The notes beneath the pieces are model-generated. The model searched no databases, was not told the origin of the DNA, and was given only the letters and a program-made list of their open reading frames with translations. Source: Alphaproteobacteria bacterium (GTDB taxonomy: Bacteria > Pseudomonadota > Alphaproteobacteria > UBA828). From it: 64,000 nt of DNA. Every line of letters begins with the position of its first letter. Position 1 is the stretch's first letter. The stretch is from contig CBDCCI010000002.1 of the NCBI GenBank assembly GCA_965214705.1, positions 2,464,001 through 2,528,000 of the forward strand, given 5' to 3'. Below, piece by piece: positions 1 through 24,443 of the stretch. The translations under genes and the position numbers were made by a program.

Positions 1-2
1 AT

Positions 3-305
3 GAGAAGGCGCGGATTGTCTCGGAGAGCTTTGAGCCGGGCTCTTCGGTTGCGGCGGTCGCGCGCCGCCATGGCGTCAGCGATACGACCCTGACCAAGTG
101 GCGGCGGCGCGCGCGGGAGGGAACTCTTCCGGGCGCTCGGATTGGTGGCTCTGCACCGCCATTTGTTCCCGTGGTGGTTGATAGCGTGACGTCCGAGCGG
201 ACGGTGGCGATCGAGGCGCTAGGCGTGGTCGTTCGCCTTCCGGTGGAGAGCGCGGTCGATCGGATTGTTGCGGTGGCCTCGGGCCTGGGCCGGGCGTCGT
301 CATGA
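3..305 (+). CDS. tnpA: IS66 accessory protein TnpA (HTH), 5' end outside window
   Basis: Frame 3 reads EKARIVSESFEPGSSVAAVARRHGVSDTTLTKWRRRAREG. TGA at 303-305 overlaps the tnpB ATG (ATGA). Not in the ORF track. Confidence 0.88.
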   Translation, partial: EKARIVSESFEPGSSVAAVARRHGVSDTTLTKWRRRAREGTLPGARIGGSAPPFVPVVVDSVTSERTVAIEALGVVVRLPVESAVDRIVAVASGLGRASS

Positions 306-652
306 TCGCGGCCCCCTCGCTTCGCATCGTGTTGGCGACGCGGCCGGTTGATTTTCGTCGCGGCCACGACGCGCTTGCGGCGACGGCGGCGGGGGAGCTG
401 GACCTCGATATCTATTCCGGGGTGATCGTGATCTTCCGCTCGCGCCGCGGCGACAGGCTCAAGCTCCTTGCGTGGGACGGCAGCGGTCTGGTGATGACCT
501 ACAAGCGTCTGGAGCAGGGCCGCTTCGCCTGGCCTCGGATCGAGGATGGTGTGATGCGCCTTACGAAGGGCCAGTTCGAGGCCCTCTTCGAGGGTCTGGA
601 CTGGCGCCGGGTGAAGGCCCGCCCGGTTCGCCGCCCGCTGGCGGCGGAGTGA
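302..652 (+). CDS. tnpB: IS66 accessory protein TnpB
   Basis: Motifs PVDFRRGHDAL, FRSRRGDRLKLLAWDGSG and KRLEQGRFAWP. Confidence 0.95.
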   Translation: MIAAPSLRIVLATRPVDFRRGHDALAATAAGELDLDIYSGVIVIFRSRRGDRLKLLAWDGSGLVMTYKRLEQGRFAWPRIEDGVMRLTKGQFEALFEGLDWRRVKARPVRRPLAAE

Positions 653-745
653 GGCGGCACGCAGGCGGGGCCGCAGATTTCGGTCGCGGTCCCGCCTGCA
701 CTTTTCCCTGGTCATGCATTGGCGAATCGGATTAAGGGGTGGCCC

Positions 746-2461
746 ATGCCGAAGGTCACGCCCTCACCCCTCAGCAGCGCCGGTTCGCCGTCGCCTGCGG
801 TGGTTTCGGCGGCGCTGGCGGCCCTGCATGCGGAGCTTGACGACGAGCGCGCGGCGCGCCGGGCGACGGAAGCAGCCCTATGCGAAGCGGAGCAGGCACG
901 CGGCGCGGCGGAGGCGGCGAGGCAGACGGCGGAAGCGCGGGCGGCACGGCTGGAGGCCGAGAACGCGCAGAGCGCGGAGCAGATCAGCCGGCTTGAGCAT
1001 CTCAACAAGGAGCTCAGGAAGGCGCTGTTCGGTCCGCGCTCCGAGAAGCTCGGCGAGGACGAGCGCCAGCTTACGTTCGAGGAGTTTTGGGCGGCGATCG
1101 CTGAAGCCGGCGGTCGGCCCGAGGCAGATGACCAGGAGCAGGACGAGGGGGCTGGCGGCAAGCGCCGGCGGCGCTCTTCCCGGGGGTCGCGCAGCGGGGT
1201 GCGCTTCGGGCCCCAGGTCGACCGGCGCGAGGAGGTGATCGAGCCGGACACGATCATGTGCCCCTGCGGCTGCGGCGAGATGACGAAGATCGGCGAGGAC
1301 CGCAGCGAGCGGCTGGACTATGAGCCGGCGAAGTTCACCGTCATCGAGACCGTGCGCCCCCGCTACGCCTGCAACAAGTGCAAGGGGGGCGGGGTGGTGC
1401 AGTCGCCGGCGCCGGCCGCTCTGGTCGAGGGCGGCCTTCCCACCGAGGCTCTTCTGGCGCAGGTGCTGATCGCGAAGTACGGCGATCATTGCCCGCTCTA
1501 TCGCCAGTCGCAGATCTACGAGCGCTCGGGGATCGAGGTTCACCGTGCGACGCTGGCGACGTGGGTGGGCCAGGCGTCGTTTCACCTGCGCCCCGTGGTC
1601 GCTTGCCTGGAGGATGAGCTGAAGAAGTCGGATCACCTGGGTCTGGACGAGACCACGATCCGCGTTCTCGACCCGGGCCGGGGCAAGACGAAGACGGGCT
1701 ACATGTGGACCCTTGTGCGTGACGAGCGCCACTGGAGCGGCACGGACCCGCCGGGCGTCGTCTATCGCTATGCGCCCGGCCGCGGCGGCAAGTATGGCGC
1801 CGAGCTTATGGAGGGCTTTTCGGGGACGGTGCAGCTCGACGGCTACTCGGGCCACAACATCCTGGCGCGGCCGGACCGGGCGGAAGGCCCTGTGACGCGG
1901 GCCCTCTGTTGGGCGCATGTAAGACGGAAGCTGAAAGAGGTATACGACTCGAGCGCATCGCCGATCGCGCTGGCCGGTCTGAATCGGATCGCGAAGCTCT
2001 ATGCGATCGAGAAGAAGATCCGGGGCAAGCCGCCGGCGGAGCGCCGCGCGATCCGTTGGGAGGAGTCGGCGCCGATCGTGAACACCTTCGGTGTCTGGCT
2101 CGACGAGCAGCGCTCGCGCGTCTCACCGCGCTCGCGTCTCGGCGAGAAGCTGACCTATATCGCCAACCAGTGGGACGGGCTGCTGGAGTTCCTGCACGAC
2201 GGTCGTGTCGAGATCGACTCGAACCTGGTGGAAAACCGAATCCGGCCGCTGAAGCTCACCGCCAAGAACGCGCTCTTCGCCGGCAACGACGAGGGTGCGC
2301 AAGCCTGGGCCCGCATCGCCTCGCTGATCGAGACCTGCAAGATGAACGGCGTCGAGCCCTACGCCTGGATGCGGAGCACGCTCGAGAAGATCGCCAAGGG
2401 CCACCCGCAGTCGGGCATCCAGGAGCTTCTGCCGTGGAACTTCCAGCCCGAGGCAAAATGA
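746..2461 (+). CDS. tnpC: IS66 transposase TnpC
   Basis: Coiled coil + LFGPRSEK, Zn finger CPCGC/CNKC, LDETT, QLDGY, CWAHVRRK, IDSNLVENRIRP, ELLPWN. ATG 746 chosen over TTG 719. Confidence 0.95.
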   Translation: MPKVTPSPLSSAGSPSPAVVSAALAALHAELDDERAARRATEAALCEAEQARGAAEAARQTAEARAARLEAENAQSAEQISRLEHLNKELRKALFGPRSEKLGEDERQLTFEEFWAAIAEAGGRPEADDQEQDEGAGGKRRRRSSRGSRSGVRFGPQVDRREEVIEPDTIMCPCGCGEMTKIGEDRSERLDYEPAKFTVIETVRPRYACNKCKGGGVVQSPAPAALVEGGLPTEALLAQVLIAKYGDHCPLYRQSQIYERSGIEVHRATLATWVGQASFHLRPVVACLEDELKKSDHLGLDETTIRVLDPGRGKTKTGYMWTLVRDERHWSGTDPPGVVYRYAPGRGGKYGAELMEGFSGTVQLDGYSGHNILARPDRAEGPVTRALCWAHVRRKLKEVYDSSASPIALAGLNRIAKLYAIEKKIRGKPPAERRAIRWEESAPIVNTFGVWLDEQRSRVSPRSRLGEKLTYIANQWDGLLEFLHDGRVEIDSNLVENRIRPLKLTAKNALFAGNDEGAQAWARIASLIETCKMNGVEPYAWMRSTLEKIAKGHPQSGIQELLPWNFQPEAK

Positions 2462-2537
2462 CTCGCGCGCTCACGGCGCTCCTCAAGAAATCCCCGTCGT
2501 AGTCAAGCCAGATTCCGGTATGGGGTCTGCGTACCGC

Positions 2538-5500
2538 TTACGCCAGAAGTGCGCGCAAGGGCCCGACGTCCAGGGCCACACGCAGGTTGTTCTCCACGAG
2601 CATGCCTTCCGGAAGAGACGCGGCCGCCAAGCGCACCGCCCGCTCGGCCGTGGAAACGGAGGCGACCTCACCGCTTAGCGCCACCCCCCGCGCAACCCGC
2701 TGCACCTGCACCCCGTCCAGCCCCGGCTCATCGGCCATGAGAGAGCGCAGCGGCCCAAGGTCCAGCCCAACCTCAAGGTTGTCCTCGACCAGCATCTCCT
2801 CGGGGATGGAGGCAGCGGCGAGGCCGACAGCGCGCTCCGCCGCCTCTGCCGATCCGACCGCTCCGGTAAGTGCCACGCCGCGTGCCAGCCGCTGAACGCG
2901 CACATCCCGAAGGTCGGGGTCCATGGCCAGAAGTGCGCGCAAGGGACCGATGTCCAGAGCCACCCGCAGGTTGTTCTCGACCGAGATGTTTTCCGGGAGC
3001 GAGGCGGCCGCAAGCCGCACCGCCCGGTCGGCCGTGGCGACGGAGGCGACCTCGCCACTCAGGGCCACGCCCCGTGCAACCCGCTGCACCTGCACCCCGT
3101 CCAGCCCCGGCTCTCCCGCCATGAGCGAGCGTAGCGGCCCGAGGTCCAGCCCAACCTCAAGGTTGTCCTCGACCAGCATCCCCTCGGGGATGGAGGCAGC
3201 GGCGAGGCCGACAGCGCGCTCCGCCGCCTCTGCAAACCCGACCGCTCCGGTAAGCGCCACGCCGCGTGCCAGCCGCTGAACGCGCACATCCCGCAGGTCG
3301 GGGTCCATGGCCAGAAGTGCGCGCAAGGGACCGACGTCCAGGGCCACCCGCAGGTTATTCTCGACCGGCATGTCCTCCGGAAGAGAGGCGGCCGTTAGGC
3401 GGACCGCCCGATCGGCGGTGGCGACGGACGCGACCTCGCCACTCAGCGCCACCCCCCGCGCAACCCGCTGCACCTGCACCCCGTCCAGCCCCGGCTCATC
3501 GGCCATGAGAGAGCGCAGCGGCCCGAGGTCCAGCCCCACCTCAAGGTTGTCCTCGACCAGCATGCCCTCCGGAATGGAGGCAACGGCAAGGCCGACTGCC
3601 CGATCGGCCGCCGCCGGAGAGCCCACCTCGCCACTGAGCGCGACCCCACGTGCCAGCCGCTGAACGCGCACATCCCGAAGGTCGGGGTCCATGGCCAGAA
3701 GTGCACGCAAGGGACCGACGTCCAGGGCCACACGCAGGTTGTTCTGGACCGGCATGCCTTCCGGAAGAGACGCGGCCGCAAGACGCACCGCCCGATCGAC
3801 AGTGGCGACGGAGGCGACCTCGCCGCTCAGGGCCACACCCCGCGCAACACGCTGCACCTGAACCCCACCCAGCCCCGCCTCGCCCGCCATGAGCGCGCGC
3901 AGCGGCCCGAGGTCCAGCCCCACCTCAAGGTTGTCCTCCACCAACATCCCTTCCGGGATAGAAGCCACCGCGAGCCCAACCGCACGCTCGGCCGCCGCCG
4001 AAGAGCCCACCTCGCCACTGAGAGCGATCCCGCGCGCCAGTCGCTGCACGCGCACATCCCGCAGGTCGGGGTCCACGGCCAGAAGTGCGCGCAAGGAACC
4101 GACGTCCAGGGCCACACGCAGGTTGTTCTCCACGAGCATGCCTTCCGGAAGAGACGCGGCCGCAAGGCGCACCGCGCGCTCGGCCGTGGCGACGGAGGCG
4201 ACCTCGCCGCTCAGGGCCACACCCCGCGCAACCCGCTGTACCTGTACTCCGTCCAACCCTGGCTCACCCGCCATGAGCGAGCGCAGCGGCTCGAGGTCCA
4301 GCCCCACCTCAAGGTTGTCCTCCACCAGCATCCCCTCGGGGATGGAGGCAACGGCAAGACCGACCGCACGCTCGGCCGCCGCCGGAGAGCCCACCTCGCC
4401 ACTCAGAGCGACCCCGCGCGCCAGCCGCTGCACCTGCACGCCCTGCAGATCCGGATCGGCGGCCAGAAGTGCGCGTAGCGGTGCGACATCGAGAGCCACC
4501 CGCAGACTGTTCTCGACCGGCATGCCTTCCGGAAGAGAGGCGGCCGCAAGGCGCACCGCCCGATCGGCGGTGTCGACGGACGCGACCTCGCCGCTCAGAG
4601 CCACCCCCCGCGCAACCCGCTGCACCTGCACCCCGTCCAGCCCCGGCTCTCCGGCAAGGAGCGAACGCAGCGGCCCGAGGTCCAACCCAACCTCAAGGTT
4701 GTTCTCCACCAGCATCCCCTCGGGGATGGAGGCAACGGCAAGGCCGACCGCACGCTCGGCCGCCGCCGGAGAGCCCACCTCGCCACCGAGAGCTACCCCG
4801 CGCGCCAGCCGCTGAACGCGCACGTCGCGCAGATCCGGATCTGCGGCCAGCAGTGCACGCAAGGGCCCGACGTCGATCACCACGAGAACATCCCGCTCCA
4901 GAACGGAGCCATCCTCGCCAAGCACGGAAATCGACGTGCTGCCCGCCGTCTGACCTAGGACGTACAGCACAGTGGGAGAGAGAAGCTGCACGTCTGCGAT
5001 CTCGGGGGAAGCAGCCGCCACTGCCTTTGCGGGACTGTCGAGATGCCACCGACGACTCTTTCCCAGCACGACAATCCACTCGTCATGGGGGAGCGCATCA
5101 CCTGGAGGATACTCAGGCGGCTGGGACTCCAAATTGGGTAGATCTTCCGCGGACGCTAGCGATAGCGAGGGAGCGGCGGAATAGGGCGCGGCACCGCCGG
5201 TCCAGGCATGTGCTGTCGGCCGTTCGTTCGGACTCATCCCCGACGGCGTGGAAGCAAAGGAAGCGAAAGGCGTATCGGAAGTCCGAACTCGATCAGGGGC
5301 GGGTTCTGCGAGGGCCACACTCTCGTACCACCCCGCCTGGCGCTCTCCTTCACCGTTGAGCCGTCCAGGCCCATCCTCAGGCAGTAACGCGGCGGTCAGG
5401 AGAGCTGCGTCCGATTCGGAGGTTGGATCGGACGCGAACGCAGTCGCGCTCGACGTGGACGAGGCGCGGTCGGGTGAAAATGCCGGCTGCAGGAACGCTC

Positions 5501-7238
5501 CTTCGGACCATGAAACGAGACCGAGGTTGGCAGCCGAGAGAGTCATGTTCCTGGGCCACGCGGCTCCTTGTTCCCAAACGTGGCCGCGCGACGAAGGTGT
5601 AGCTCCGGAATAGAATGCGTCTACCAAGGATGCCGCGCCGGCTCTGCGCGCGAATTCGGACGCCGTCGCGTTCGTGCCTGACTGCAGCATCGTGAGGTCG
5701 AGCAAGAAGATGGACTGCAGGAATGTCGCATGTGACAAGGAGACGTGACCGAAATCGGCAGCACCGAAGATCAGTCGTTGGGACAACGCGGCTCCCGGCT
5801 CCCACCAGCCGTTAGGCGGCGCGGATGAGCGGCTGGAAGTGGACGGGACGGGACGGGATGGCGCATGTCCTTCGGTCATTGACTGGGACGCCGCAGGCGT
5901 CGCTCTTCGCGTCAACCTGATGGGATTGGACGGAAGAGCAGGATGATCGAATGATGCATCCGACAAGGTGTCGACGTTGAAGTCGGCAGCCGCCACGGTC
6001 GCTCTCTCCAACCATGCAGAATCCGGCTCCTGCATGCCGCTCATCAATAAGGGTGCAACACCGGTAGAGGACGGGTTGGGAACGGGGACCGCGTCGGATT
6101 CGGTCGTTGGTGCCGGCGCCGACGCTGTCGCGGCGGTCGGCGTTGTGGCGTCTGCGGTCGAAAGGAACAGGGGAGTCGGAGACCCCTCGGGCGGCGCGGT
6201 GAAGTCGGGGTCGGTGGCGCCGGAGACGGCCATGATCGCGGACCGAGCGGCATAAGGATTCGGAACGCCCTGCTGCGATGCAAACGAGGCTTTTGGCGAA
6301 GGCGGGTTCGGGGCGCCCGCCTCCCCGCCCCCGGATGTGGATTGGGGCCGAGGCGCTCCGGCGTAATCGGGAACGGCGAATACTGCGTCCGCCGCGGGAA
6401 GAACGTCCCAGCCAGCCTCGCCGGTGAGGCGGAGCGTCAGCCCCAACGTACCTCCGAGTGCAATACCTGTTGAGGGCCCGAGCCCTTTGCTCGCGATCAA
6501 TGGCGGCGGGTCGAGGGGAGGCCACTCCAGCAGGAGTCTGGTATCGACCCGGCGCGGCGGCATTGACTGTCGGCGGGCAGTGTCCACAAGGTTCTGCAAT
6601 GCGCGTGAGTCGTCTTCCTCCCAGTAGGACGCGTCATATCGTTCGTAGATACCTGCTGCCGCGTCGATCCGACCGGAAGCGATCAGCATACGAACGAAGT
6701 TGGCTGCGATCCGGGGATGTGCCGAGGGATGGCGGAGCGCTTCGGTGTAGTGGGTTTCGGCGGTCTCGTAGTCGGCTTCGAGTACGGCGGCGACGGCGAG
6801 GCCGTTTTCGATCCACATGACTGACGAGGGATCTTGTACGAGCGCTCGCGCATCCAGCAGGTGTTGACGCGCCGCTTGGGTATCGCCGAGAGCGAGCGCC
6901 GTCCGCCCGGCACCGAGGAGCGCCTCTCCCCTGGTAGCGGGTGAGGCCTGCGCCAGGTCCGCAGCCTGGAGAAACTGTCGGCGCGCCGCGTTGAAGTCAT
7001 GGTCGTGCAGGAAGATGTAGCCCAGTCCCAGGACAGGTTCAGGCGCATCGTCGAATCGCTCTGCAAGCGAAAGGTAGAGCCTCCGGGCAACGGCCGGCTG
7101 TCCCGCCGCGAGCGCGGCGGAAGCGACGGACAGATGGTCTCGAAGCAGCTCCCTGGCGCCGGGCCTGTCGGCCGGCTCGGAGACGCCGGAGCAGGCGGCG
7201 ACAAAAATAAGCGTGGCAAGCGCGGCGGTTGCGGGCAT
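2538..7238 (-). pseudogene. TadD-like TPR lipoprotein fused to a CpaC/RcpA N-terminal domain and >=12 BON-like repeats; C-terminus cut by IS66
   Basis: Likely start ATG 7238 with lipobox FVAAC. TPR helices (NGLAVAAVLEADYETAETHYTEAL), CpaC N-domain (LGKSRRWHLDSPAKAVAAASPEIADVQLLSPTVLYVLG), then 64-aa repeats. The stop codon lies inside the IS66 IR. Confidence 0.75.
2542..4874 (-). repeat. Tandem 192-bp (64-aa) BON-like repeats, alternating A/B (384-bp period), 12 complete + 1 partial
   Basis: A: DVGPLRALLAxDPDLRDVRVQRLARGVALSGEVGS...EDNLEVGL. B: DLGPLRSLMAGEPGLDGVQVQRVARGVALSGEVASV...ENNLRVAL. Confidence 0.95.
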
Positions 7239-7362
7239 GCGTCTTGCGGAATTCAAGCGCAATACCGAACTTTTGAATCGGGACGCCAAACTTCGATGAT
7301 GAGCAGTTCGGACGTTCAAAATCTTCGCCTCCCGTGCCCGCGGTGAACCGGCGGCCGGAAAC

Positions 7363-8451
7363 TCAGGCGCAATCCACATGCCGAAACGAATTCGCGGAGA
7401 ATCGTGATCTCCAGGCATCGAACAGGGCATCGCGAGAACCGCTGAAGCGCGCCTGAATGGTCACGTACTCCTGCTGTGTTGTCGTGTTCGCGGCGGATTG
7501 AACGGAATATCCGAGCCTCTTCAGGCTGGTCATCCGCCGCTGCGCATTCGCTCTGCTCCTGTACACACCGAGCGAGACCGCGTTTCTCAGTTCACCTCCG
7601 AGGATGACCGCGACGTCGCGGATTCCCCGGCTCTTGAGTTCGCGCAATGTCCGAAGGGCACTCTTGCGGCTGTCCAAGGGCGGGATGTAGACCCGGTGGC
7701 TCTCGATCGTCTCACGCGGCTCCGCGGCTATCGCGAGAATCTCCGCCCCTCGCGAGCGCAGCCATTGCTTGGCGTCCTCAACGTCGTCGCGAGTCTCGAA
7801 CTCGCCCACCGACACACAGGCGGCATCGGCAACGGCCAAGGCGGCAGTCGGGCTCTGACGCTCTTCGCGTGCGAACCGGTCTGTAGCCCGTGCACCGGCC
7901 TCGCCCATCTCGGGCGCCTCTGAAACGACCGGTTCCGAGGTGCGCGGAATGGATGAGCGGACCGGCTCGCTGCGCTCTCGGACTATGGTCGTGCCGAAGC
8001 CGAGTTCCCGGGCGCGGGCGTAGGCACCGCGCGCCAGCTTCACGTAGATGTCGCCCAGGTTCTGGTATCCGATGGCGTCGGTCTGGCGTTCGAGTGCACC
8101 GAGGAGGACCCCGCGCGCGTCCTCGAGCCGGCCCTCTTGAACGTAGACGACGGCCAAATTGTTGTAGGCCTCGAACAAGTCGGGAAAGTCCCGCACGAGT
8201 GAGCGGAAGGTGTCGATCGCCTCGTCCCGATCTCCCTCGTGCAGGCGTAAGATCCCGTGCAGAAGCCGTGCATGGGAACTGCCGGGCTCTCGCTCAAGCA
8301 GCGGATCAAGGGTGAGACGTGCTTCCCGATAGCGTTCTTCGTCTGCGAGCGAGATCGCGCGGTCGAGCGTGTCCTCGGACAGCGCGGCGTTGGACGAGAG
8401 AGTCGCCGCTGACATCGCCAGCGCCAGCAGGACCGCGCCGATCTTCGTCAT
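7363..8451 (-). CDS. Exported TPR + SPOR-like domain protein
   Basis: Signal peptide. TPR motifs EAYNNLAVVY and YQNLGDIY. C-terminal VSLGVYRSRANAQRRMTSLKRLGY (SPOR-like). Confidence 0.8.
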   Translation of the reverse strand: MTKIGAVLLALAMSAATLSSNAALSEDTLDRAISLADEERYREARLTLDPLLEREPGSSHARLLHGILRLHEGDRDEAIDTFRSLVRDFPDLFEAYNNLAVVYVQEGRLEDARGVLLGALERQTDAIGYQNLGDIYVKLARGAYARARELGFGTTIVRERSEPVRSSIPRTSEPVVSEAPEMGEAGARATDRFAREERQSPTAALAVADAACVSVGEFETRDDVEDAKQWLRSRGAEILAIAAEPRETIESHRVYIPPLDSRKSALRTLRELKSRGIRDVAVILGGELRNAVSLGVYRSRANAQRRMTSLKRLGYSVQSAANTTTQQEYVTIQARFSGSRDALFDAWRSRFSANSFRHVDCA

Positions 8452-9089
8452 GGCCGCCTCCAGTGCTCATCCAAGGCAGTGTTGTCTGCTCGCCGCGGCA
8501 GATCTGCGCGCGTGCGCTGGACCGCCTCATCGACATGCGGCGGACGCGTCTCCCTGGATTGCTGCCCAGTGGGATGGTCGTTCGCTTCACTGCGGTTGCT
8601 GGTACCGGCGATCCAGCCGGCAATGAACTTGTTGGCGATCGCGCGGATCCCTTCGTGAAGGTTCTCTGCAACCAAAGCGACCCGGGCAATCTCCTCAGGG
8701 TCTCGAGGGTCCGGTGCCTCGGCGGTGGAGGGCCATCCGGCTGCATTCCGCGCTGCGGATCCGACGCTCTTGAAGGCGTCCGAAATCATCGACGCCTCTT
8801 CCAATGCAGTCGGCATCGGCTTGTCGTATGCGCGTCTGACGCGGTCGAGCGTGAGTTCCAGCCTGCGAGCCGCTTCCAGCGTCTCGCGTTCGTTCTCCGA
8901 GAACTCACTGCCTTCGGCTTCTCCCTTGTCCAGGATCCAGCTGCTCTCCTTTCCGGCGTTCTGCAGCTCGTTGTGTGCTCTCCGAGCGTCCAGCGAATAG
9001 GTGAGACCCAGACGAACCTGCTGGATCAAGCCGAGGGGCGTAAGATGACCGACGGCACCGGTCTCGATTTCGATGGCGCGGTATCCCAC
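8448..9089 (-). CDS. Hypothetical protein, 213 aa
   Basis: AAGGAGAG before GTG; ATGA overlap with the downstream TPR-SPOR gene. Confidence 0.6.
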   Translation of the reverse strand: MGYRAIEIETGAVGHLTPLGLIQQVRLGLTYSLDARRAHNELQNAGKESSWILDKGEAEGSEFSENERETLEAARRLELTLDRVRRAYDKPMPTALEEASMISDAFKSVGSAARNAAGWPSTAEAPDPRDPEEIARVALVAENLHEGIRAIANKFIAGWIAGTSNRSEANDHPTGQQSRETRPPHVDEAVQRTRADLPRRADNTALDEHWRRP

Positions 9090-9166
9090 CTCTCCTTCTT
9101 CTTCGTGTTGGAGGCGGATACTCTTCGTGCGCGTTCCCTCACTCGTCTGGGCGCCTGCGTCCGTCA

Positions 9167-9198
9167 GAAAAGGTTAAGGGTTGAAAAGGTTAAGGGTT
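9167..9198. repeat. 16-bp perfect tandem duplication GAAAAGGTTAAGGGTT x2
   Basis: Copies at 9167-9182 and 9183-9198. Confidence 0.9.
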
Positions 9199-9233
9199 GG
9201 GCAGGCTCTCTCTCGAGAGCCTGCCCAACCCTT
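9192..9233. repeat. Perfect 19-bp-stem hairpin (terminator or insertion target)
   Basis: AAGGGTTGGGCAGGCTCTC-tctc-GAGAGCCTGCCCAACCCTT. Confidence 0.85.
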
Positions 9234-9495
9234 TTGAACGAAGCCGCGGGCCACGAGAGGCGAAGTTGAGCTATGTGGAAAGTGCGCTGATGTCAGCGTC
9301 AGGCGGCATCCACCGGCAGCAGAGTTGCGCATAAAATCGACGCTCGCGCCGGTCTTTCGGCAGGCATGCGGGCGCACGCTGCGAGGACTGAGCGGGGTGT
9401 GAGCCGAGGGCTGTCAGCCCGGCTCAAGCGGAGACAGGTTCGGTCGTGCGTCGGCGCTTTGGCGCCGTTGCGCGGGGCCGAAGCGAGCGGGCGTC

Positions 9496-10737
9496 TCACG
9501 GTTTCCCCCTGTGGGTCGGCGGCAGCGCCGGCGGGCCGCGCGTCGAGCGGGGCTCATGGCGGCGGCGGATTTCGCGGACGAGGCGCATGACGCCGCCGCA
9601 GTGGGGGCAGGCCACGGGCGCGGTGCCGATCTCGGGCTCTTCGTCGGGCTCGGCCCGAGCGCCGTCCACGCTTCCCTCGGGGGCGGCGCAGCCGAGGGCG
9701 CCGAGAGCCTGGCGTGCTCTCTCCAGCGTGCTGGCGCGGCAGCCGTTGGCGAGGATGCCGAAGTAGCGAATGCGGTGCATGCCGTCCGGCAGGACGTGCC
9801 TCAGGAAGCGGCGGATGAACTCGTCGGCGCTCACGGTGGCGATGCCGTAGCGCGGCTTTCTCTGCCCCGGCGCCTTGGGCTTTCGGTGGCGGAAGGAGAC
9901 CGTCTCGCCGTCGAAGGAGACGATGCGGCTGTCGGAGATGGCGATCCTGTGCGTGTAGTGCGAGAGGTACCGGAAGACCTGCTCAGGCCCGCGGAAGGGC
10001 CGCTTGGCGTAGACCACCCAGTCCCTGGCCCGGGCGGCGGCAAGCGTGGCGTGGAACTCGCCGGGATTGGCGAGGTGGGCGAGGGTGCCGTGGAACTCCA
10101 GGTCCCCCCGGCCGTGGGCGCGGGCGAGCTCCTCGAGGAAGAGGCGGCGGAACAGGCTGCCGAGGACCTTGACGGGGGCGAGGAAGGTGGTGCTCCCCGT
10201 CTTCCACTCGCCACTGTCTACGTCGAAGCCCGCGTTGGGCACGACCACGTGCAGGTGCGGGTGGAAGCGGAGCTTCTGATCCCAGGTATGGAGGACCGCG
10301 GTGCCGCCGATGCGCATGCCGCCGTGGCGGGGATCGGCGGCGATGGTGCGCAGGGTCTCGGCGACGGCCCGGAAGAGGATGTCGAACACCACCCTGCGGT
10401 TGCAGAAGGCAATGGCGGCAACCTCCTTGGGCAGGGTGAAGACCACATGGAAGTAGGGCACCGGCAGGATGTCCCCGGCGCGCTCCTCGCTCCAGAGGTT
10501 GGCGGCGAGACCCTGGCAGGTGGGGCAGTGGCGGTTGCGGCAGGAGTTGAAGAGCGGATGCTCGCGCCCGCAGCCCTCGCAGGCGTACATGTGGCCGCCG
10601 AGCACGGCGGTGCGGCACGCCTCGATGGCGCCCATGACCTTGAGCCGGGCGGCGTCGATGCGCCCTTTGTGGCGCTCACGGAAAGCGGCGCCGGCGCGGC
10701 GGAAGATCTCCGCCACGCCCGCGCGTTCGGCCTCCAC
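9496..10737 (-). CDS. IS91 family transposase (Zn-binding + Y2 HUH)
   Basis: CRTAVLGGH, SCRNRHCPTC, YFHVVFTLP, LHTWDQKLRFHPHLH (HUH), YLSHYTHR (YxxxY), RIRYFGILAN, CPHCG. Confidence 0.95.
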   Translation of the reverse strand: MEAERAGVAEIFRRAGAAFRERHKGRIDAARLKVMGAIEACRTAVLGGHMYACEGCGREHPLFNSCRNRHCPTCQGLAANLWSEERAGDILPVPYFHVVFTLPKEVAAIAFCNRRVVFDILFRAVAETLRTIAADPRHGGMRIGGTAVLHTWDQKLRFHPHLHVVVPNAGFDVDSGEWKTGSTTFLAPVKVLGSLFRRLFLEELARAHGRGDLEFHGTLAHLANPGEFHATLAAARARDWVVYAKRPFRGPEQVFRYLSHYTHRIAISDSRIVSFDGETVSFRHRKPKAPGQRKPRYGIATVSADEFIRRFLRHVLPDGMHRIRYFGILANGCRASTLERARQALGALGCAAPEGSVDGARAEPDEEPEIGTAPVACPHCGGVMRLVREIRRRHEPRSTRGPPALPPTHRGKP

Positions 10738-10743
10738 GCGCCG

Positions 10744-11622
10744 TCAGTTGCGCAACGCTGCGAAGCCTGAGATCGGGTGGTCGAGGCCCTCGAACATCTT
10801 GCCGGTGACGCGGGCGTAGTGACGGGTCGTGTTCGCGCTTCGATGGCCGAGCATGTCCCGGATCACCTCGATATCGCCGCCGCGCTCGAGGAGATGGGTC
10901 GCCGCCGAATGGCGCAGGCAATGGAAGGTGTAGCTGCGGTCGAGCTCGGCAATGTCGCGCGCCCTCCTGAAGGCGGCCTGCAAGGTCTCCGTTGCGATGG
11001 GCCTGTCGAGCGAGACGCCGTAGAAGAGCCAGCTCGTCGGACGCGGCCAGATGTTCCTGTAGTAGACGCGCAAGTAGTGGATGACGATGTCCGGCAACGG
11101 TGCCATTCTCTCGGTGCCGCCTTTGCCGGAGGGGATGTGCAGCAGCTTCTTCTCCGACAGGATGTCGCCGACCTTGATGGCCAAGGTCTCGGAGATGCGG
11201 AGCCCGCCGCCATAGCCGGTGACAATGGCAGCACGGTGGCGGAGGTCGGGTGTCGCAAGGATGAGGTGCTCGACCTCCTGCTCCGACATGTAGCGCGGCA
11301 GCTTGCCGGGCTTCTTGCGGGAGCGCAGGCCGGCGACATGGTCAGGCCAGCCGAGTGTGTCGATGTAGAGGAAGTTCAGCGCGGCGAAGGAGACGTTGGT
11401 CGTGCCCGGACTGAGCCCCTTGTCGATCCGCCCCAGGTACCACTGGCGCACCTGCTCGGCGTCGAGCTCGTCCGGCGAGGCGTCGTAGTACCTGGCCAGG
11501 TTCTTGATCTCGCAGATGTAGGCCTTGGACGTGCTCGCGGCCAGATTGGCGATGCGGAGCTGCTCCTCCATGCGCTGGCGAAGAGGGGTGACGGTGTTCG
11601 TGTCGCACGCGGTCCCGGTCAT
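10744..11622 (-). CDS. Tyrosine recombinase/integrase
   Basis: N-terminal TPLRQRMEEQLRIANL; GLRISE, GKGG, HCLRHSAATHLLE, LGH, TRHY. GGAG precedes ATG 11622. Confidence 0.93.
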   Translation of the reverse strand: MTGTACDTNTVTPLRQRMEEQLRIANLAASTSKAYICEIKNLARYYDASPDELDAEQVRQWYLGRIDKGLSPGTTNVSFAALNFLYIDTLGWPDHVAGLRSRKKPGKLPRYMSEQEVEHLILATPDLRHRAAIVTGYGGGLRISETLAIKVGDILSEKKLLHIPSGKGGTERMAPLPDIVIHYLRVYYRNIWPRPTSWLFYGVSLDRPIATETLQAAFRRARDIAELDRSYTFHCLRHSAATHLLERGGDIEVIRDMLGHRSANTTRHYARVTGKMFEGLDHPISGFAALRN

Positions 11623-11818
11623 TATCGATCTCCCTGGATCGCGACGGCGCGCCGCCGGACCGATCCGGCGACGGTCCGTCGCAGGGGTCGATACTAACCA
11701 CTGGTGATCGGGAGGCTGCTGGGGATCCGCCACCCGACGGGCGGAGCGCCACTGACGCAACCGGGAAGCGAACGCACAGAACAAACGGCACCCGCGACGC
11801 CTCGGAAATGAATGAACT

Positions 11819-13090
11819 CTACGCCGCTAACTCCGCGTAGCGGCTTCGTTCAAATGCGGATGCCAGTTCTTCGAGCCAGCGGGGGGCGCGCTGCTTCGCC
11901 ATGACGGTGCTGATTTCGGCGCCGAGCGCATCGGCATCGTCGGCGCCGCGCAGGCGCGACAGCGCCTGGGTGAATCCGATGCCGTAGGACTCCCTCATCC
12001 GCCGCCGCACGGCGTCGGAGATACGGTTGGCAGCGACCTTGAGCTCGGTCAGTTCGTTGTCCCGAACGAGCGCGTCGGGACGGGTGAATTGCAGAGTGCC
12101 GGTGTCCTCGTTCGCAGCCCGGATGCGCGCCTCAAGCGCGTAGAAGTCTGCTGGGGACGCCTCCGCGCTCCTCGCCTCGGGCTCCGGGACGGTCGCCGTT
12201 CGGGTGCCGGCGGGCTTCTTTGCAGCATTCTCCGGAACACTCTCTTCCTGTTCTTCTTCGACGACGACGATCTCGGCGTGTTCGGCCAGGGCCCGCAGCC
12301 AGCGGATTTCATTGGGATCGAAGGCGTGCAGGCGATAGCTGGTCGCGGGCGTGTAGTAGCGCCGCAGCGGCGCACGCACGCCGCGTCCAGCTCGCAGGCG
12401 GATCGCGCTGAGCGACGCGCGCGTCTTCAAGCTCTGCCCGTTCCAGGCCCGCTCGAGCGCGTTTGCCACGCCTGCAGTCGTGCGGCGCTCCCGCACGTCT
12501 TCGAAATGGGATTGGAGATGCTCGAAGATCCTGACGGCGCAGAGGACCACAAGGCTCGATTCCGCGCCGGCCGCCGCCTTGTGCCTCTCGCCGGCCTGGG
12601 TCCAGCGCTCGGCGGTTTCGTGCACCGTCGTCGCCAACTCGAGAGCGAGGATCACGTATCCGGCAACCGACTCGGGACGAATGCCGACATGAAGCTCGCC
12701 CTTCGAGCCGTTCCATACGCGGTAGCACTCGCCTTCCGCCGCGACGGCTACGCTTCGACTCCAGGCGCCCGCAGAGACGACATTCTCAGCACCGGCAGCG
12801 AGGTCGGAGGCCGCGATCCCGACATCTCCGATCAGCCGGTTCCCGAGGACTTCGACAGGCTCAGGCAGGCGTCGGTGCGCACGGGCCGCTTCGCCGAGCA
12901 TGGCCCCCGTCTCCGGACGCTCGAGCGCGGTCCAATCGAGCGGCGCGTCTGCGTCGAGCCTGTCTCTGACCGCATTCGGGAGCGCCTTCACGGCGCGGGT
13001 GAACAGTTTGTCGGTATTCACACTGAGACTCCTTGCGACTGGTATGGAAAGCTCCGACTGGGAAGGTCCAGGGTCCCGCCTTTCTGTCAT
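11819..13090 (-). CDS. Hypothetical protein, 423 aa; last residues overlap the element's inverted end
   Basis: Long ORF 39 bp downstream of cpaB on the same strand. No recognised motif. Confidence 0.6.
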   Translation of the reverse strand: MTERRDPGPSQSELSIPVARSLSVNTDKLFTRAVKALPNAVRDRLDADAPLDWTALERPETGAMLGEAARAHRRLPEPVEVLGNRLIGDVGIAASDLAAGAENVVSAGAWSRSVAVAAEGECYRVWNGSKGELHVGIRPESVAGYVILALELATTVHETAERWTQAGERHKAAAGAESSLVVLCAVRIFEHLQSHFEDVRERRTTAGVANALERAWNGQSLKTRASLSAIRLRAGRGVRAPLRRYYTPATSYRLHAFDPNEIRWLRALAEHAEIVVVEEEQEESVPENAAKKPAGTRTATVPEPEARSAEASPADFYALEARIRAANEDTGTLQFTRPDALVRDNELTELKVAANRISDAVRRRMRESYGIGFTQALSRLRGADDADALGAEISTVMAKQRAPRWLEELASAFERSRYAELAA

Positions 13091-13129: not shown

Positions 13130-14077
13130 TTAGGGAGTCGTTTCGAGCTCCGCGTTTTCGAATGCGGCCGGCCCTGCGTCCGCCTCGAAGGCCACGCCGG
13201 TGACTTCCGTTCCCCGGATGACACGCACTGTCGTGTGCAGCTCGGGTTCAGGCGCCTCGGGTGGTGCTGGCTGCAGAGACAGCAAGGTTCGTGCGTCGAC
13301 GGGGCCGGTCCGTACCGTCTGCGCGCCGCCTGCAGCGAGCGGTCGAACGGCCAGAGCGAGCTCGCCTTCGAACTCTCCGAGCGCGAGGAGTCCCGTCTGC
13401 TCGGGCAACACCTCCAGGGTGGCCGTGACGATTTCGGTGCGCTCGATTTCCCGGCCGTCTTCCCCCGGCGCGGCGGTGCTTCCGATGCTTCTGTCGACCG
13501 CGAGCACCCGCACGTCCTCGAGGATCGTCCGCGAGAGCACGTTTTGCAGACCGTCCGAACGCGATTTCGCCGTGAGGACGACATCCACGCGATCGCCGGG
13601 ATCAACGAGGCCGGAGTGGCGCGTGCCGGCGCCTAGACGGATGGTCATGGCCCGCATGCCGGGCTTGAGCACGGCTGCGAGGAATCCTCTCTGGCGCGGC
13701 CCAACCAGCGCCCGCCAGGTCACCGGTGCGGCGTGGGCGAGCGCCTCGCGCACGACATAGCCGTACGGCACCTGGGCCGCGTCCGAGCTGTCCAAGAGGA
13801 TGTGGCTGCGGCGGACCGAATCCTCTTCGATCCCGAGTTCCGTCAGGTCCTCCTCTCGGAGCAGGGTGCCGACCGGCAAGTCGCGGGCGGCCGCAAGCAC
13901 CATGCGAAGCTCGGGCTCCTCCACAGGCGGCGGCTCCGGCTGGGCGGCAACGGCGGCCTGAGTCTCGACCTGCTCGGGCTGGCCGGCGGGCAGCATGTAG
14001 CGCATCACGAACACGCCGACGATCATCGGAACAATGCCCAACAGGGCCACGATGATCACGGTGCGGTATCGTCTCAT
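13130..14077 (-). CDS. cpaB: Flp pilus assembly protein CpaB/RcpC
   Basis: N-terminal TM, SAF domain VLAAARDLPVGTLL, LKPGMRAMTI, PGDRVDVVLT, ILEDVRVLAVD, TATLEV. Confidence 0.93.
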   Translation of the reverse strand: MRRYRTVIIVALLGIVPMIVGVFVMRYMLPAGQPEQVETQAAVAAQPEPPPVEEPELRMVLAAARDLPVGTLLREEDLTELGIEEDSVRRSHILLDSSDAAQVPYGYVVREALAHAAPVTWRALVGPRQRGFLAAVLKPGMRAMTIRLGAGTRHSGLVDPGDRVDVVLTAKSRSDGLQNVLSRTILEDVRVLAVDRSIGSTAAPGEDGREIERTEIVTATLEVLPEQTGLLALGEFEGELALAVRPLAAGGAQTVRTGPVDARTLLSLQPAPPEAPEPELHTTVRVIRGTEVTGVAFEADAGPAAFENAELETTP

Positions 14078-18320: not shown

Positions 18321-18336
18321 GGCCCTCTCCCCTTCG

Positions 18337-23682: not shown

Positions 23683-23889
23683 CTATTCTTCGATTACTAC
23701 GTCTGGCGTTTCGATGGCCGCAACATTTGTGCCCAACTGAACAATCGGTTCGTTGATGTCGTCCGAAAACGCGATCAGAACACCCCCGATGCCGGCCAGG
23801 ATGAAGCCCAGGAGAATCGAGTGCTCCAGGGCCGATACGCCCCTTCCGGTTCGCAGAAACAGACCGCAGCGCTTCAGCCATGCTCTCAT
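23683..23889 (-). CDS. Flp family pilin (variant)
   Basis: RG|VSALEHSILLGFILAGIGGVL: Gly-1, Glu+5, His in place of Tyr+6. Confidence 0.75.
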   Translation of the reverse strand: MRAWLKRCGLFLRTGRGVSALEHSILLGFILAGIGGVLIAFSDDINEPIVQLGTNVAAIETPDVVIEE

Positions 23890-24007: not shown

Positions 24008-24232
24008 CTATTGCCCTGCCGCCAGATTGCCTTGGCTGACGGTACCCGTGCCTTGTGTCACCTTGGTTCCGACCGCTTCGATCGCGTCTTCGACGTCCCC
24101 GGTGAAGACGGCGAGCGCCCCTCCGACTCCGGCGACGACGACGCCGACGATGATGGCGTATTCGAGAGCCGATACGGCCTCCTGGGCACGGACGAAGCGG
24201 CCGAGAAAACGCAGCATGGTCTTCAACTTCAT
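24008..24232 (-). CDS. flp: Flp family type IVb pilin
   Basis: GGAGG RBS; EA|VSALEYAIIVGVVVAGVGGAL Flp motif; 74 aa. Confidence 0.9.
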   Translation of the reverse strand: MKLKTMLRFLGRFVRAQEAVSALEYAIIVGVVVAGVGGALAVFTGDVEDAIEAVGTKVTQGTGTVSQGNLAAGQ

Positions 24233-24443
24233 GAGATCCTCCACTAAACGGTTGCCGGCGAGCCGCACCGGCGCGGTGATGAGGACCGGGAGAGTTTTCC
24301 GATGCTCCCAGTCCGAAGCTGAGGACGCGGAATTGAGGTACGTCCGCCGTCCTGTGTTCCTTGCAGGTGCACGCGATGTGCCGCAGCCGGGGATGGCCGA
24401 GACATCGCGTGCCTTAACCGCGTCGTCTGAAGTTTCGTCATCG

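Follow-up and report, generated by a model that had tools for sequence, protein, structure and literature searches.

Analysis of the window (the whole stretch of 64,000 nt of alphaproteobacterial DNA) revealed a Tad/Flp (type IVc) pilus system, in which the fused ORF at 2538..7430 of the minus strand corresponds to the 5′ portion of the final operon gene. This ORF is likely to be a broken copy of a giant Tad secretin carrying its own pilotin module, the intact form of which would target itself and stack its BON units as rings; docking between the TPR module and the C-terminal tail and the stacking of the rings are proposed by analogy with characterized secretins. The intact gene encodes a lipoprotein secretin comprising a signal peptide with lipobox, a TPR module of the PilF/TadD class, a linker, an RcpA/CpaC N-domain, an array of 64-aa BON units, a region of ~110 aa, the Secretin barrel and a variable tail ending in three aromatic residues. 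An IS66-family element inside BON unit 13 supplies the stop codon, and the window copy is a truncated allele without a channel. No description of the fused TPR-secretin-BON-array architecture was found in the literature searched.

Reading Frame and Domain Layout

ORF listing gave a single stop-free frame of 1630 aa counted from the first ATG, with a stop-to-stop extent of 2541..7460 (Table 1). The earlier note had read a lipobox, TPR helices, a linker, a CpaC-type N-domain and BON-like repeats in one frame, and this was confirmed by Pfam and ORF analysis, with BON (E-value = 3.4e-54, 181 bits, 11 stretches), T2SS-T3SS_pil_N and TPR_19 (25.4 bits, cut-off 25), the latter two above their cut-offs. 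By rough arithmetic, 475 linker codons would stay free of stops by chance with a probability of ~1e-4 at ~70% G+C, and, judging from homology, a chance origin of the open frame is excluded. The start at 7238 proposed in the earlier note corresponds to Met65 of the frame and gives MPATAALATLIFVAAC, with a lipobox at Cys80, but it shares its candidacy with in-frame TTG codons at 7319, 7289, 7262 and 7256. Since these would add a positively charged n-region, the true start probably lies within 7238..7319. The lipobox Cys is conserved in at least 90% of 31 aligned sequences.

The linker extends over 475 aa between the end of the TPR profile (residue 304) and the start of the pil_N profile (780), somewhat short of the ~490 aa first estimated, and is composed of 17% Ala, 13% Ser and 12% Pro. 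It is long and poorly constrained: across four pairs of related loci, its dN/dS is 0.51-0.62, compared with 0.08-0.34 in the domains. Its length goes with array size, as the medians are 90 aa for forms with one BON unit (n = 30), 103 aa for those with 3-4 (n = 24) and 408 aa for those with 9-36 (n = 24). Within the giants, however, linker length does not scale with unit number and some one-BON forms reach 456 aa, both of which count against the mechanism proposed below.

Tandem Repeats Finder described 2542..4874 as a period of 384 in 6.1 copies, equal to a period of 192 in 12.2 copies. When cut by hand, the array consists of 12 units of 64 aa of alternating A and B types without indels, followed by 10 residues of unit 13, and its six 384-nt di-units are pairwise 83-90% identical in DNA. 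The best PDB match of the unit profile is OsmY (8rjx, E-value = 2.1e-8), no secretin N-domain being present among the 10 PDB matches at E ≤10. In Pfam, the model for YscD "Bon-like domain 3" is matched above its cut-off by units of the homologues P0012 and P0020. The unit consensus contains no Trp.

Table 1. Coordinates of the features identified in the window.
Feature	Position	Strand	Basis and remarks
IS66-family element	1..2541	+	Runs off left window end; right end ~2541 (+/-1 nt); ORFs, terminal bases
IS66-type tnpA-like ORF	3..305	+	ORF listing
IS66-type tnpB	302..652	+	ORF listing
IS66-type tnpC	719..2461	+	ORF listing
TAA stop of truncated frame	2538..2540	-	Terminal bases of IS66 element
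First 10 codons (DVGPLRALLA) of BON unit 13, IS-cut	2541..2570	-	Sequence reading
12 BON units, each exactly 64 aa	2571..4874	-	Residues 853-1620; Pfam, TRF, manual cutting
T2SS-T3SS_pil_N (RcpA/CpaC N-domain)	4881..5072	-	Residues 787-850; Pfam 52.8 bits (cut-off 23)
Linker, Ala/Ser/Pro-rich	5094..6518	-	Residues 305-779, ~475 aa; profile boundaries, composition
TPR module, PilF/PilW/TadD class	6519..7190	-	Residues 81-304; Pfam TPR_19, PilF 2ho1 match
Signal peptide and lipobox VAAC	7191..7319	-	Cys80 codon 7191..7193; start ATG 7238 or TTG 7256/7262/7289/7319
TPR + SPOR protein	7363..8451	-	Sec-type signal, no lipobox; directly upstream; Pfam; synteny in 14 loci
Conserved operon gene, 213 aa	8448..9089	-	No Pfam/NCBIfam match; tblastn matches in 16 loci
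IS91-family Y2 transposase	9496..10737	-	Pfam; part of insertion 9496..11784
Tyrosine recombinase	10744..11784	-	Pfam; part of insertion 9496..11784
Conserved operon gene, 423 aa	11819..13090	-	No family assigned
CpaB/RcpC	13130..14077	-	Pfam RcpC; TIGR03177 168 bits (cut-off 71)
DAHL-domain histidine kinase, within operon	14613..17270	-	Pfam; tblastn matches in 33 loci
T2SSF platform gene, TadC-like	17319..18386	-	Pfam T2SSF
T2SSF platform gene, TadB-like	18337..19380	-	Pfam T2SSF
TadA/CpaF-type ATPase	19290..20705	-	Pfam T2SSE 223 bits; TIGR03819 E 1e-99, under cut-off
TadZ/CpaE-like protein	20708..23440	-	TIGR03815 E 5.7e-6, under cut-off
Flp-type pilin candidates (two)	23683..23889; ~24008..24250	-	Read by eye, motifs GVSALEH and AVSALEY
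TadE-like genes (two)	24444..25349; 25289..26107	-	One: TadE NF041390 E 9.2e-5, under cut-off

Interruption of the Gene and Surrounding Operon

The IS66 element already recognised in the earlier note is borne out by its tnpA, tnpB and tnpC ORFs and by 717 plasmid records matching at annotated IS66 tnpB/transposase genes; IS66 ends generally start with GTAAGCG. The TAA that closes the frame lies within its right end, hence the gene is cut inside the BON array, and the repeat homology of the interrupted gene begins at 2542, directly after that end. Because the stop falls in unit 13, no channel can be formed from this copy; neither the fused ORF nor the 45 other scanned ORFs of the window yielded a secretin domain. 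The ORF would amount to ~56% of the full gene, if the intact version resembled the homologue P0002. The insertion of the IS91 transposase and recombinase at another site of the operon speaks for the same conclusion, and the genes flanking it are adjacent in six related loci (L001-L004, L006, L012), with which the gene order is shared.

The Tad secretin identity put forward earlier is upheld by the Tad gene context and by the RcpA structure (8odn) as best solved relative of the intact orthologue. The TadZ/CpaE-like protein has a ParA/MinD-like C-terminal half, with matches in 66 loci, and an N-terminal acidic extension of ~520 aa. CpaB/RcpC is of ordinary length in the giant-array loci. A strict Flp pattern search returned no match, the pilin candidates coming from reading by eye. 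The remark that no other rcpA or tadD is visible in the window needs qualifying as to tadD: the adjoining TPR + SPOR gene has a Sec-type signal but is devoid of a lipobox, and gives only a weak profile match with the fused TPR module (hhalign probability 38%).

Intact Relatives and Spread of the Fusion

An uninterrupted form of the gene is represented by P0002, a protein of 2810 aa with 88% identity to the window ORF (1374/1566 residues, no gaps). It has 27 BON units, followed by a Pfam Secretin domain at 2627-2789 and the aromatic C-terminal tail, placing the barrel where the earlier note had expected it, past the break. Its N-domain and barrel both match RcpA 8odn (E-value = 1.5e-36), the pil_N-matching part aligning with RcpA residues 44-93. 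TPR module and secretin share a single ORF in 29 of the 68 related loci and in 49 of the 61 protein hits, so that homologues are not always encoded as two genes; two further fused loci (L006, L047) are frame-broken. Another 26 loci have a separate ORF matching the TPR profile within the fetched span. The stand-alone ORFs examined (L022, L037, L061) are lipoproteins of ~230-240 mature residues from the same tad loci, and in L037 the lipoprotein gene lies directly before a secretin gene with its own Sec signal. Of the 127 rows that include a secretin part, 123 have a tail ending in [YF]-[HYR]-[YF], and the other four (L021, L065, P0057, P0041) are cut or partial.

The number of BON units ranges from 1 to 36 among relatives, with ~42 in the frame-broken L006, and the periodicity of 64 aa is strict even where units are only 58-88% alike (L002, 36 units). 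All seven complete proteins of the window subclade have odd counts (27, 25, 21, 19, 15, 11, and 9). The dN/dS of the array (0.19-0.26, four locus pairs) indicates that BON arrays are under purifying selection. The eight protein hits (of 61) without a secretin part all break off within the array, and six of these finish in long tails that are out of frame; taken together with the frame break of L006, this means that some unit counts may reflect repeat assembly.

TPR Module and Proposed Function

Apart from TPR_19, the module scores 25.3 bits with TPR_12, under the cut-off of 30.1, and E = 2.1e-5 with TIGR02521 (PilW), far under that model's cut-off. The TPR profile (A2) has PilF (2ho1, E-value = 9.5e-7) as its best natural PDB match, and no TadD-named chain, including the TadD solved with RcpA, appears among the best 60 PDB matches listed. 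By sequence, the module thus seems nearer to PilF than to that TadD chain. N145, N180 and R112 are among the groove residues invariant in A2. The occurrence of both fused and separate states among relatives supports the reading of the module as a pilotin.

By analogy, the tethered TPR module would do the job of separate TadD/PilF lipoproteins, targeting and stabilizing its own secretin at a 1:1 stoichiometry, and the protein may therefore be termed "self-piloting". Its groove plausibly holds the conserved aromatic tail, just as the groove of TadD binds the final 4-5 residues of RcpA, which are required for assembly (PMC10499894, excerpt). The N-domain would dock the CpaB/RcpC alignment ring, as RcpC binds the RcpA N-domain (PMC12307814, excerpt), and the BON units, being of the ring-building-motif fold class, would stack as rings between N-domain and barrel. 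Such a long periplasmic stack would form a conduit with a length set by the number of units, and recombination between the 384-nt di-units would change that number. The long linker would allow a membrane-anchored TPR module and a distant N-domain in one chain.

Alternative Explanations

An error of assembly or gene calling behind the giant ORF or its repeat number is barely credible. It is suggested by the length and similarity of the repeats, by frame breaks within the array of several homologues and by the fact that all related records are metagenome-assembled genomes, but the architecture was found independently in 29 loci and 49 proteins across many assemblies, including contigs of 1-5 Mb, the frame stays open across 2,300-3,400 codons with a dN/dS well below 1, and the units of L002 and L004 differ by 12-42% from their nearest sibling and cannot be collapsed or duplicated reads. 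For the architecture, this explanation is close to refuted. It is also very unlikely that the gene is still functional here, either through separate expression of the 3′ part past the IS66 or because only part of the population carries the element. Although split forms exist among relatives, nothing in the window favours a functional gene; the break splits a BON unit, the 3′ part alone would have neither signal peptide nor N-domain, and a second mobile element has entered the same operon.

More weight is due to two alternatives concerning function. It is rather unlikely, yet worth considering, that the fused TPR module serves as a scaffold rather than as a pilotin, tying the secretin to peptidoglycan-associated or polar partners, with outer-membrane targeting left to the lipid anchor or to another lipoprotein. 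In Caulobacter, CpaO, the orthologue of TadD, is not required, the secretin being partnered by the lipoprotein CpaD; not every TPR lipoprotein of a tad locus is therefore a pilotin. The TPR and peptidoglycan-binding region of PodJ is proposed to stabilize the secretin there (PMC13170226, PMC12637624, excerpts). Sixteen of 20 sampled distant relatives of the module are TPR lipoprotein + SPOR proteins, and the module scores weakly with the curated PilW and TPR models. An aromatic residue at the C-terminus could just as well serve as a signal for the BAM β-barrel assembly machinery. Against the scaffold reading, the stand-alone homologues are TadD-sized lipoproteins of tad loci, PilF is a proven pilotin, and the tail is conserved as a groove ligand would be, in line with RcpA-TadD. 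A more serious contender, though still short of an even chance, is that the array is not a tube of rings but a flexible string of beads in each protomer, acting as tether or spring between barrel and N-domain, or as a phospholipid- or peptidoglycan-binding carpet under the outer membrane. In sequence, the units come closest to OsmY, giant loci show no lengthening of CpaB and a peptidoglycan-binding TPR + SPOR gene is conserved next door. The Thermus PilQ channel measures ~35 nm for six rings and barrel (PMC4463427); extrapolated from it, 27-36 stacked units would make a tube of the order of 100 nm, far beyond an ordinary periplasm, which counts against stacking. BON2 of DolP binds anionic phospholipid, but according to the same source phospholipid binding is not a general property of BON domains, and both DolP BON1 and OsmY are without the key Trp (PMC7806268, excerpt), like the consensus here. 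Moreover, the strict spacing free of inter-unit linkers and the purifying selection fit a regular rigid assembly, and BON belongs to one homologous group with YscD periplasmic domains, ring-building motifs and Secretin_N, of α-β-β-α-β fold (PMC11836899, excerpt).

Comparison with Known Systems

The self-targeting ring-stack secretin proposed here shares with Pseudomonas aeruginosa RcpA-TadD (8odn; PMC10499894) the N-domain family and barrel, a tad operon with CpaB/RcpC, TadA and TadB/C, a TPR lipoprotein partner in the outer membrane and a short tail C-terminal to the barrel. However, pilotin-like module and secretin here form a single chain, with a linker of 56-480 aa between them, and no sequence similarity with TadD was detected for the TPR module among the best 60 PDB matches listed. 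In contrast, RcpA has 416 aa, 20 aa between N-domain and barrel, no BON array and Leu-Ser-Asp in place of the aromatic tail (PMC10499894, excerpt). Caulobacter CpaC/CpaO/CpaD likewise represents an alphaproteobacterial Tad secretin with pil_N, one further periplasmic domain and barrel. "BON + secretin" is an established architecture with 476 UniRef100 entries, mostly alphaproteobacterial (PMC7806268, Table 1, excerpt), to which the one-BON forms of related loci correspond. Unlike the fused array, CpaC and these proteins contain just one BON domain, and their TPR protein is a separate one. The Caulobacter arrangement, with CpaO dispensable and CpaD as lipoprotein partner, also differs, and no CpaD-like gene was recognised among the annotated genes of the window.

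OsmY and DolP belong to the same Pfam family, and the alternating A/B di-unit recalls their dual-BON pair, but they are two-domain soluble or lipid-anchored periplasmic proteins, neither channel parts nor bearers of long arrays. Liposecretins, such as HxcQ and BfpB of the bundle-forming pilus, are N-terminally lipid-anchored secretins generally regarded as reaching the outer membrane with no pilotin of their own as a separate protein, and the polypeptide described here similarly bears its own N-terminal lipid anchor site (lipobox). Liposecretins have a lipidated N-terminus but are not known to carry a fused TPR pilotin module or a BON array. Finally, PilQ of Thermus thermophilus, a type IVa pilus secretin of 757 aa and six rings, stacks repeated small α/β N-domains as rings and thereby lengthens the channel across an unusually wide periplasm (PMC5745081, PMC4463427), as the BON units may do here. 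The giant Tad secretins differ from it in having 9-36 units (~42 in L006) of the BON family and a fused TPR lipoprotein, in proteins of up to ~3,400 aa.

The Truncated Secretin Gene and Its Interruption

Analysis of the open frame beside the left edge of the window revealed a truncated member of the RcpA/CpaC secretin family. The frame runs through a lipobox, a TPR module, a linker, a T2SS-T3SS_pil_N domain and an array of BON repeats, a succession put forward in the earlier note as a pilotin-secretin fusion and borne out here by ORF calling and Pfam. The linker is indeed long, at about 475 aa instead of the approximately 490 aa claimed. Met65 of the frame is the start assumed in that note (7238) and yields MPATAALATLIFVAAC, with the lipobox VAAC and Cys80; TTG codons in frame upstream (7256–7319) would contribute a positively charged n-region, and the upstream gene ends at 7363. 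Given the lipobox start and these TTG codons, we place the true start, as judged from the sequence, within 7238..7319. The array protein comprises 12 units of exactly 64 residues each, alternating between types A and B, and then 10 residues of a 13th unit.

The TAA stop of the frame (2538..2540) is formed by the final bases of an IS66-family element. The repeat homology of the interrupted gene starts at 2542, a boundary from which the right end of the IS66 element was placed at 2541, and the element thus sits within BON unit 13. As had been noted from the sequence, the secretin barrel is not visible in this ORF, with no Secretin (PF00263) match by Pfam. Furthermore, a family-specific profile of the secretin C-domain matched nowhere in the six frames of the 64-kb window, and Pfam scans of 45 other window ORFs detected no Secretin domain. 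The window copy is therefore truncated, and the remainder of the gene, if it still exists, is beyond the IS66 element and outside the window. With the insertion of an IS91-family transposase and a tyrosine recombinase further upstream (see table), the tad operon has been struck twice by mobile elements. Annotations of IS66 tnpB and transposases underlie matches in 717 plasmid records, and a plasmid search with window positions 4800..12000 matched IS91 transposases solely.

Features of the interrupted secretin gene and of its surroundings (window positions, or residues of the open frame)
Feature	Position	Strand	Remarks
IS66-family element	tnpA-like 3..305; tnpB 302..652; tnpC 719..2461	+	Extends past the left window edge; left end and target duplication fall outside the window
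Open frame of the secretin gene	2538..7430	-	One open frame, 1630 codons counted from the first ATG
TPR repeats	N-terminal part of the ORF	-	Pfam borderline; TPR_19 25.4 bits, cut-off 25
PilW (type IV pilus lipoprotein, TIGR02521)	residues 70-286	-	NCBIfam 24.2 bits, below the cut-off of 154
Linker, TPR module to N-domain		-	Rich in Ala, Ser and Pro
T2SS-T3SS_pil_N (PF13629)	residues 787-850	-	Pfam 52.8 bits, cut-off 23
BON (PF04972)	11 stretches	-	Pfam 181.4 bits, cut-off 27
Tandem repeat DNA	2542..4874		Period 384, 6.1 copies, 87% matches; equivalent to period 192
TPR+SPOR gene	7363..8451	-	Sec signal, without lipobox; conserved as the immediate upstream neighbour of the secretin gene (14 loci)
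Direct repeat and hairpin	near 9165..9235		Two copies of ~15 nt, then a G+C-rich hairpin, near the low-coordinate side of the IS91/recombinase insertion; may be the end of that element
IS91-family Y2 transposase and tyrosine recombinase	9496..11784		Inserted between the 423-aa and 213-aa genes, which adjoin in relatives
DAHL-domain histidine kinase	14613..17270	-	Flanked by the platform genes and cpaB; 33 related loci have a match
TadZ/CpaE-like gene	20708..23440	-	Acidic low-complexity N-terminal extension of ~520 aa; C-terminal half alone conserved (66 loci)
Direct repeat of 182 nt	24392..24573 / 25237..25418		73% identity; similar acidic C-terminal tails of two TadE-like genes
LysR-type ORF	26293..26928		211 aa; substrate-binding domain match ends at profile position 90/209; may be truncated
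Third transposase, DDE_Tnp_1 / DUF772 type	56975..58207		Near the tRNA-Val gene
tRNA-Val gene	59129..59203		

Intact Homologues and the BON Array

A protein search with residues 65-900 of the ORF led to 61 proteins. The closest one, P0002 (2810 aa), is identical to the window ORF at 1374 of 1566 aligned positions with zero gaps and carries the array on into the barrel, with 27 BON units followed by some 110 residues, then the Pfam match to Secretin (2627-2789, 135.6 bits) and a short tail. Reading the stretch that separates the final unit from the barrel domain as a degenerate BON unit was considered and rejected (hhalign probability 0.4%). The best solved relative of P0002 is RcpA of the Pseudomonas aeruginosa Tad system (8odn, E = 1.5e-36), with both the N-domain and the barrel matched, and Secretin (PF00263) was present in 12/12 homologues scanned by Pfam. 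Architectures were counted with profiles built from the window BON units and from slices of our alignment A1. TPR module, N-domain and secretin part stand together in one protein in 49 of the 61 hits, the secretin part is missing in eight and the TPR part in four. All eight proteins without a secretin part break off within the array, and six of these finish with a long out-of-frame tail; they look frame-broken or cut rather than representing another architecture. Uninterrupted homologues with the architecture proposed in the earlier note do exist, and the intact relatives of the window ORF are, by domain content, full members of the RcpA/CpaC secretin family.

The number of BON units per complete fused protein is 1 (n = 30), 3–4 (n = 24) or 9–36 (n = 24), the last group being referred to here as giants, and in locus L006 ignoring the one frame break would bring the count to about 42 units. 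Spacing of the units is 64 residues with almost no exceptions across the arrays. It is kept even in the 36 units of locus L002, each of which is 58–88% identical to its nearest sibling, so that arrays of this sort must be old and cannot have come from duplication during assembly. Units close to the N-domain are 88–98% alike in the window and in P0002, and the di-units (pairs of A and B units, 384 nt) are 83–90% identical in DNA, a likeness that indicates recent amplification or conversion. In the subclade of the window, each of the seven complete proteins has an odd number of units (27, 25, 21, 19, 15, 11, 9); these counts fit a change by one 384-nt di-unit per step, a pattern that collapsed short-read assemblies could mimic. 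Frame breaks inside the array were seen in L006 (~13496..13694), in locus L047 (~9781..10636) and in six proteins (P0004, P0013, P0024, P0029, P0030, P0054); they may be sequencing errors in G+C-rich repeats or a repeated inactivation of the gene. For four pairs of loci, dN/dS was 0.19–0.26 in the array, 0.13–0.27 in the TPR module, 0.11–0.34 in the N-domain, 0.08–0.18 in the secretin part and 0.51–0.62 in the linker (Nei-Gojobori method, own script; misaligned repeats may distort these values).

Concerning the identity of the units, a profile of 72 of them matched OsmY in the PDB (8rjx, E = 2.1e-8) and no secretin N-domain; a profile is required, since the di-unit as a single sequence gave no significant PDB match. 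In Pfam, units of P0012 and P0020 score above the cut-off for the YscD ‘Bon-like domain 3’. According to PMC11836899, ECOD unites BON, the YscD periplasmic domains, the type III ring-building motifs and Secretin_N as a single group of homologues that share an alpha-beta-beta-alpha-beta fold.

Fused and Two-Gene States among Related Loci

No relatives emerged when genomes were scanned with the N-terminal 788 aa of the window ORF itself. The second scan, based on A1, used two secretin-domain peptide patterns and led to 68 loci, which are a sample and not a census. All 68 belong to metagenome-assembled genomes, none titled as an isolate, and their titles include Alphaproteobacteria, Rhodospirillales, Defluviicoccus, Thalassobaculaceae, Gammaproteobacteria, Candidatus Binatia and a few others. 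Read from stop-to-stop frames, 29/68 loci hold the TPR module and the secretin in one ORF, two (L006 and L047) hold them fused with a broken frame, 26 show a match to the TPR profile in another ORF of the fetched span, and in 11 a TPR match is absent from that span. Fifteen of the 26 separate ORFs are on the same strand, upstream, and 240–380 aa long from stop to stop; the other 11 are larger, lie on the opposite strand and have a less clear relation. The three separate ORFs examined (loci L022, L037 and L061) have lipoboxes and approximately 230–240 mature residues, and in L037 the next gene after the stand-alone TPR ORF is the secretin gene, with its own Sec signal. The homologues are accordingly not always encoded as two genes, as both loci and proteins include fused forms; two-gene loci exist as well. 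This presence of both states among relatives is a classical argument for a joint function of the TPR module and the secretin. Searching the whole library with the TPR-module profile resulted in 53 representative clusters at E <= 1e-30, 18 of them with a secretin according to our profile; stand-alone proteins and short fragments make up most of the remainder.

A quick maximum-likelihood tree of the secretin part (124 rows) grouped all forms with at least three BON units in one starred clade of 47 rows, in which the giants form two starred subclades with an unresolved backbone, and placed the TPR-less forms in a starred clade of 37 rows. As the tree is unrooted, fusion is not separable from fission. 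Within a giant clade whose other members are alphaproteobacterial lies locus L001, titled Bryobacterales, and some loci with Thermodesulfobacteriota or Actinomycetota in their titles group among Binatia; binning error or horizontal transfer could be responsible for these placements.

Of 31 TPR modules aligned, at least 90% conserve the lipobox Cys, and the invariant Asn and Arg residues of the module repeat at TPR-repeat spacing. Against the PDB, the profile of the TPR alignment (A2) matched PilF (E = 9.5e-7), ranked behind designed consensus TPR proteins, and no chain named TadD was among its best 60 matches; here too a profile is required, since the TPR part as a single sequence had no significant PDB match. 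At the other end of the protein, 123 of the 127 rows that include a secretin part close, after a variable spacer, with [YF]-[HYR]-[YF], whether or not the TPR module is fused. According to PMC10499894, the last four to five residues of RcpA are held in the TPR groove of TadD, and no secretin forms in their absence. The more distant relatives of the module are mostly TPR lipoproteins that carry between one and three SPOR domains at the C-terminus (16 of 20 sampled; P0088, P0092, P0119-P0187), so the module occurs in combination with a secretin in some proteins and with peptidoglycan-binding domains in others.

The tad Operon

The genes upstream of the secretin gene, all on the reverse strand, follow the order of two TadE-like genes and two Flp-like pilin candidates, a TadZ/CpaE-like gene, TadA/CpaF, two T2SSF genes, a DAHL-domain histidine kinase, CpaB/RcpC, two conserved genes with no assigned family, and the TPR+SPOR gene. 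The locus contains a T2SSE gene beside the two T2SSF genes, and CpaB/RcpC scores 168 bits with TIGR03177 (cut-off 71). The Flp-like and TadE-like ORFs were recognised by eye, a strict Flp-motif pattern gave no match, and a scan for promoters and terminators gave nothing exceeding shuffles. The two TadE-like genes look like a tandem duplication. The kinase, CpaB, the 423-aa gene, the 213-aa gene, the TPR+SPOR gene and the secretin gene stand in identical order in L001-L004, L006 and L012. The TPR+SPOR gene was also considered as a paralogue of the fused TPR module, a reading that was rejected (hhalign probability 38%); its product recalls the periplasmic TPR and peptidoglycan-binding region of PodJ, proposed to stabilise the Caulobacter secretin (PMC13170226; PMC12637624). 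The rest of the window has ordinary chromosomal content, e.g., seryl-tRNA synthetase, phosphoglycerate mutase and a branched-chain amino acid ABC transporter.

Probable Working Mode of the Intact Protein

How the intact protein most likely works we infer from named precedents. By the precedent of TadD and RcpA, the lipidated N-terminus and the TPR module would act as a built-in pilotin, and the N-domain should dock CpaB/RcpC, as the N-domain of RcpA is reported to dock RcpC (PMC12307814). The BON units, belonging to a ring-building fold class, would stack as rings, as in Thermus PilQ, whose six N-domain rings and channel of ~35 nm are reported to span an ‘extraordinarily wide’ periplasm (PMC5745081; PMC4463427). 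A single chain arranged in this manner would begin at the lipid anchor, next to the barrel, and would have to extend as far as the distal end of the ring stack, which would explain the long linker; linkers measure 399–479 aa in 24/24 giants, whereas the short forms have medians of 90 and 103 aa. Taken jointly, the intact members would be the largest secretins so far seen (up to ~3,400 aa per protomer), in which 13–14 protomers, each with 27–42 ring-building BON domains, build a periplasmic tube of ~100 nm whose far end is capped by the CpaB-docking N-domain, with the TPR pilotin lipid-anchored at the barrel via the ~400-aa linker and the length tuned in two-unit steps by di-unit recombination. 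We consider this combined reading rather unlikely. If it were true, the envelope of these uncultured Alphaproteobacteria would be unusually wide or layered, or the outer-membrane part could stand far from the inner-membrane motor.

Several points speak against the proposed working mode. A stack of 27–36 rings would amount, by our own extrapolation, to the order of 100 nm, CpaB has an ordinary length in the giant loci, and long linkers also occur in some 1-BON forms. Of the two main rivals, one regards the BON array as a flexible or surface-binding string of beads. The other assigns a scaffold role to the TPR module, whose likeness to a pilotin rests on the PilF match behind designed TPR proteins. 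Whether TadD-like TPR lipoproteins are true Tad pilotins is disputed, TadD being described as required in Pseudomonas and CpaO, its Caulobacter orthologue, as dispensable there (PMC13170226; PMC12637624). This dispensability and the SPOR domains of the distant TPR relatives both count against a built-in pilotin. In favor of the built-in pilotin stands the TadD-RcpA precedent, together with two indirect hints, namely the conserved aromatic tail and the coexistence of fused and two-gene forms.

Comparison with Known Systems

For this genome the significance is more modest, namely a Tad locus with two mobile-element insertions, one of which severs the channel domain of the secretin gene. More generally the family is of real interest for work on secretins and the Tad pilus, an interest tempered by the broken copy, the uncultured organisms and the inferred mechanism. 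The architecture ‘BON + secretin’ with one BON is listed in Table 1 of PMC7806268, and no mention of BON arrays was found alongside it. Literature searches on pilotin-secretin fusions and on secretins with several BON domains likewise brought up no account of either; the supplements of PMC10499894 (Figs 1a and 6, domain layouts of RcpA homologues) and PMC7806268 (file 1, ‘BON + secretin’ accessions) could bear on novelty. The fused TPR lipoprotein and the array of 9–36 BON units depart from every described form that we could find.

Secretin-pilotin pairs are normally two proteins, whereas here the TPR lipoprotein is fused to the secretin in one chain. A TPR lipoprotein that is sometimes fused and sometimes adjacent is Rosetta-stone evidence, supplied by nature, that the two are linked in function directly and 1:1, and it provides a simple construct to test this link. 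The arrays far exceed any described stack of secretin N-domains, including the six rings of Thermus PilQ, itself termed ‘one of the largest’ in a paper on it. Being strictly periodic and under selection, they pose a concrete structural question, that of the maximal length of a periplasmic conduit and of the envelope requiring it.
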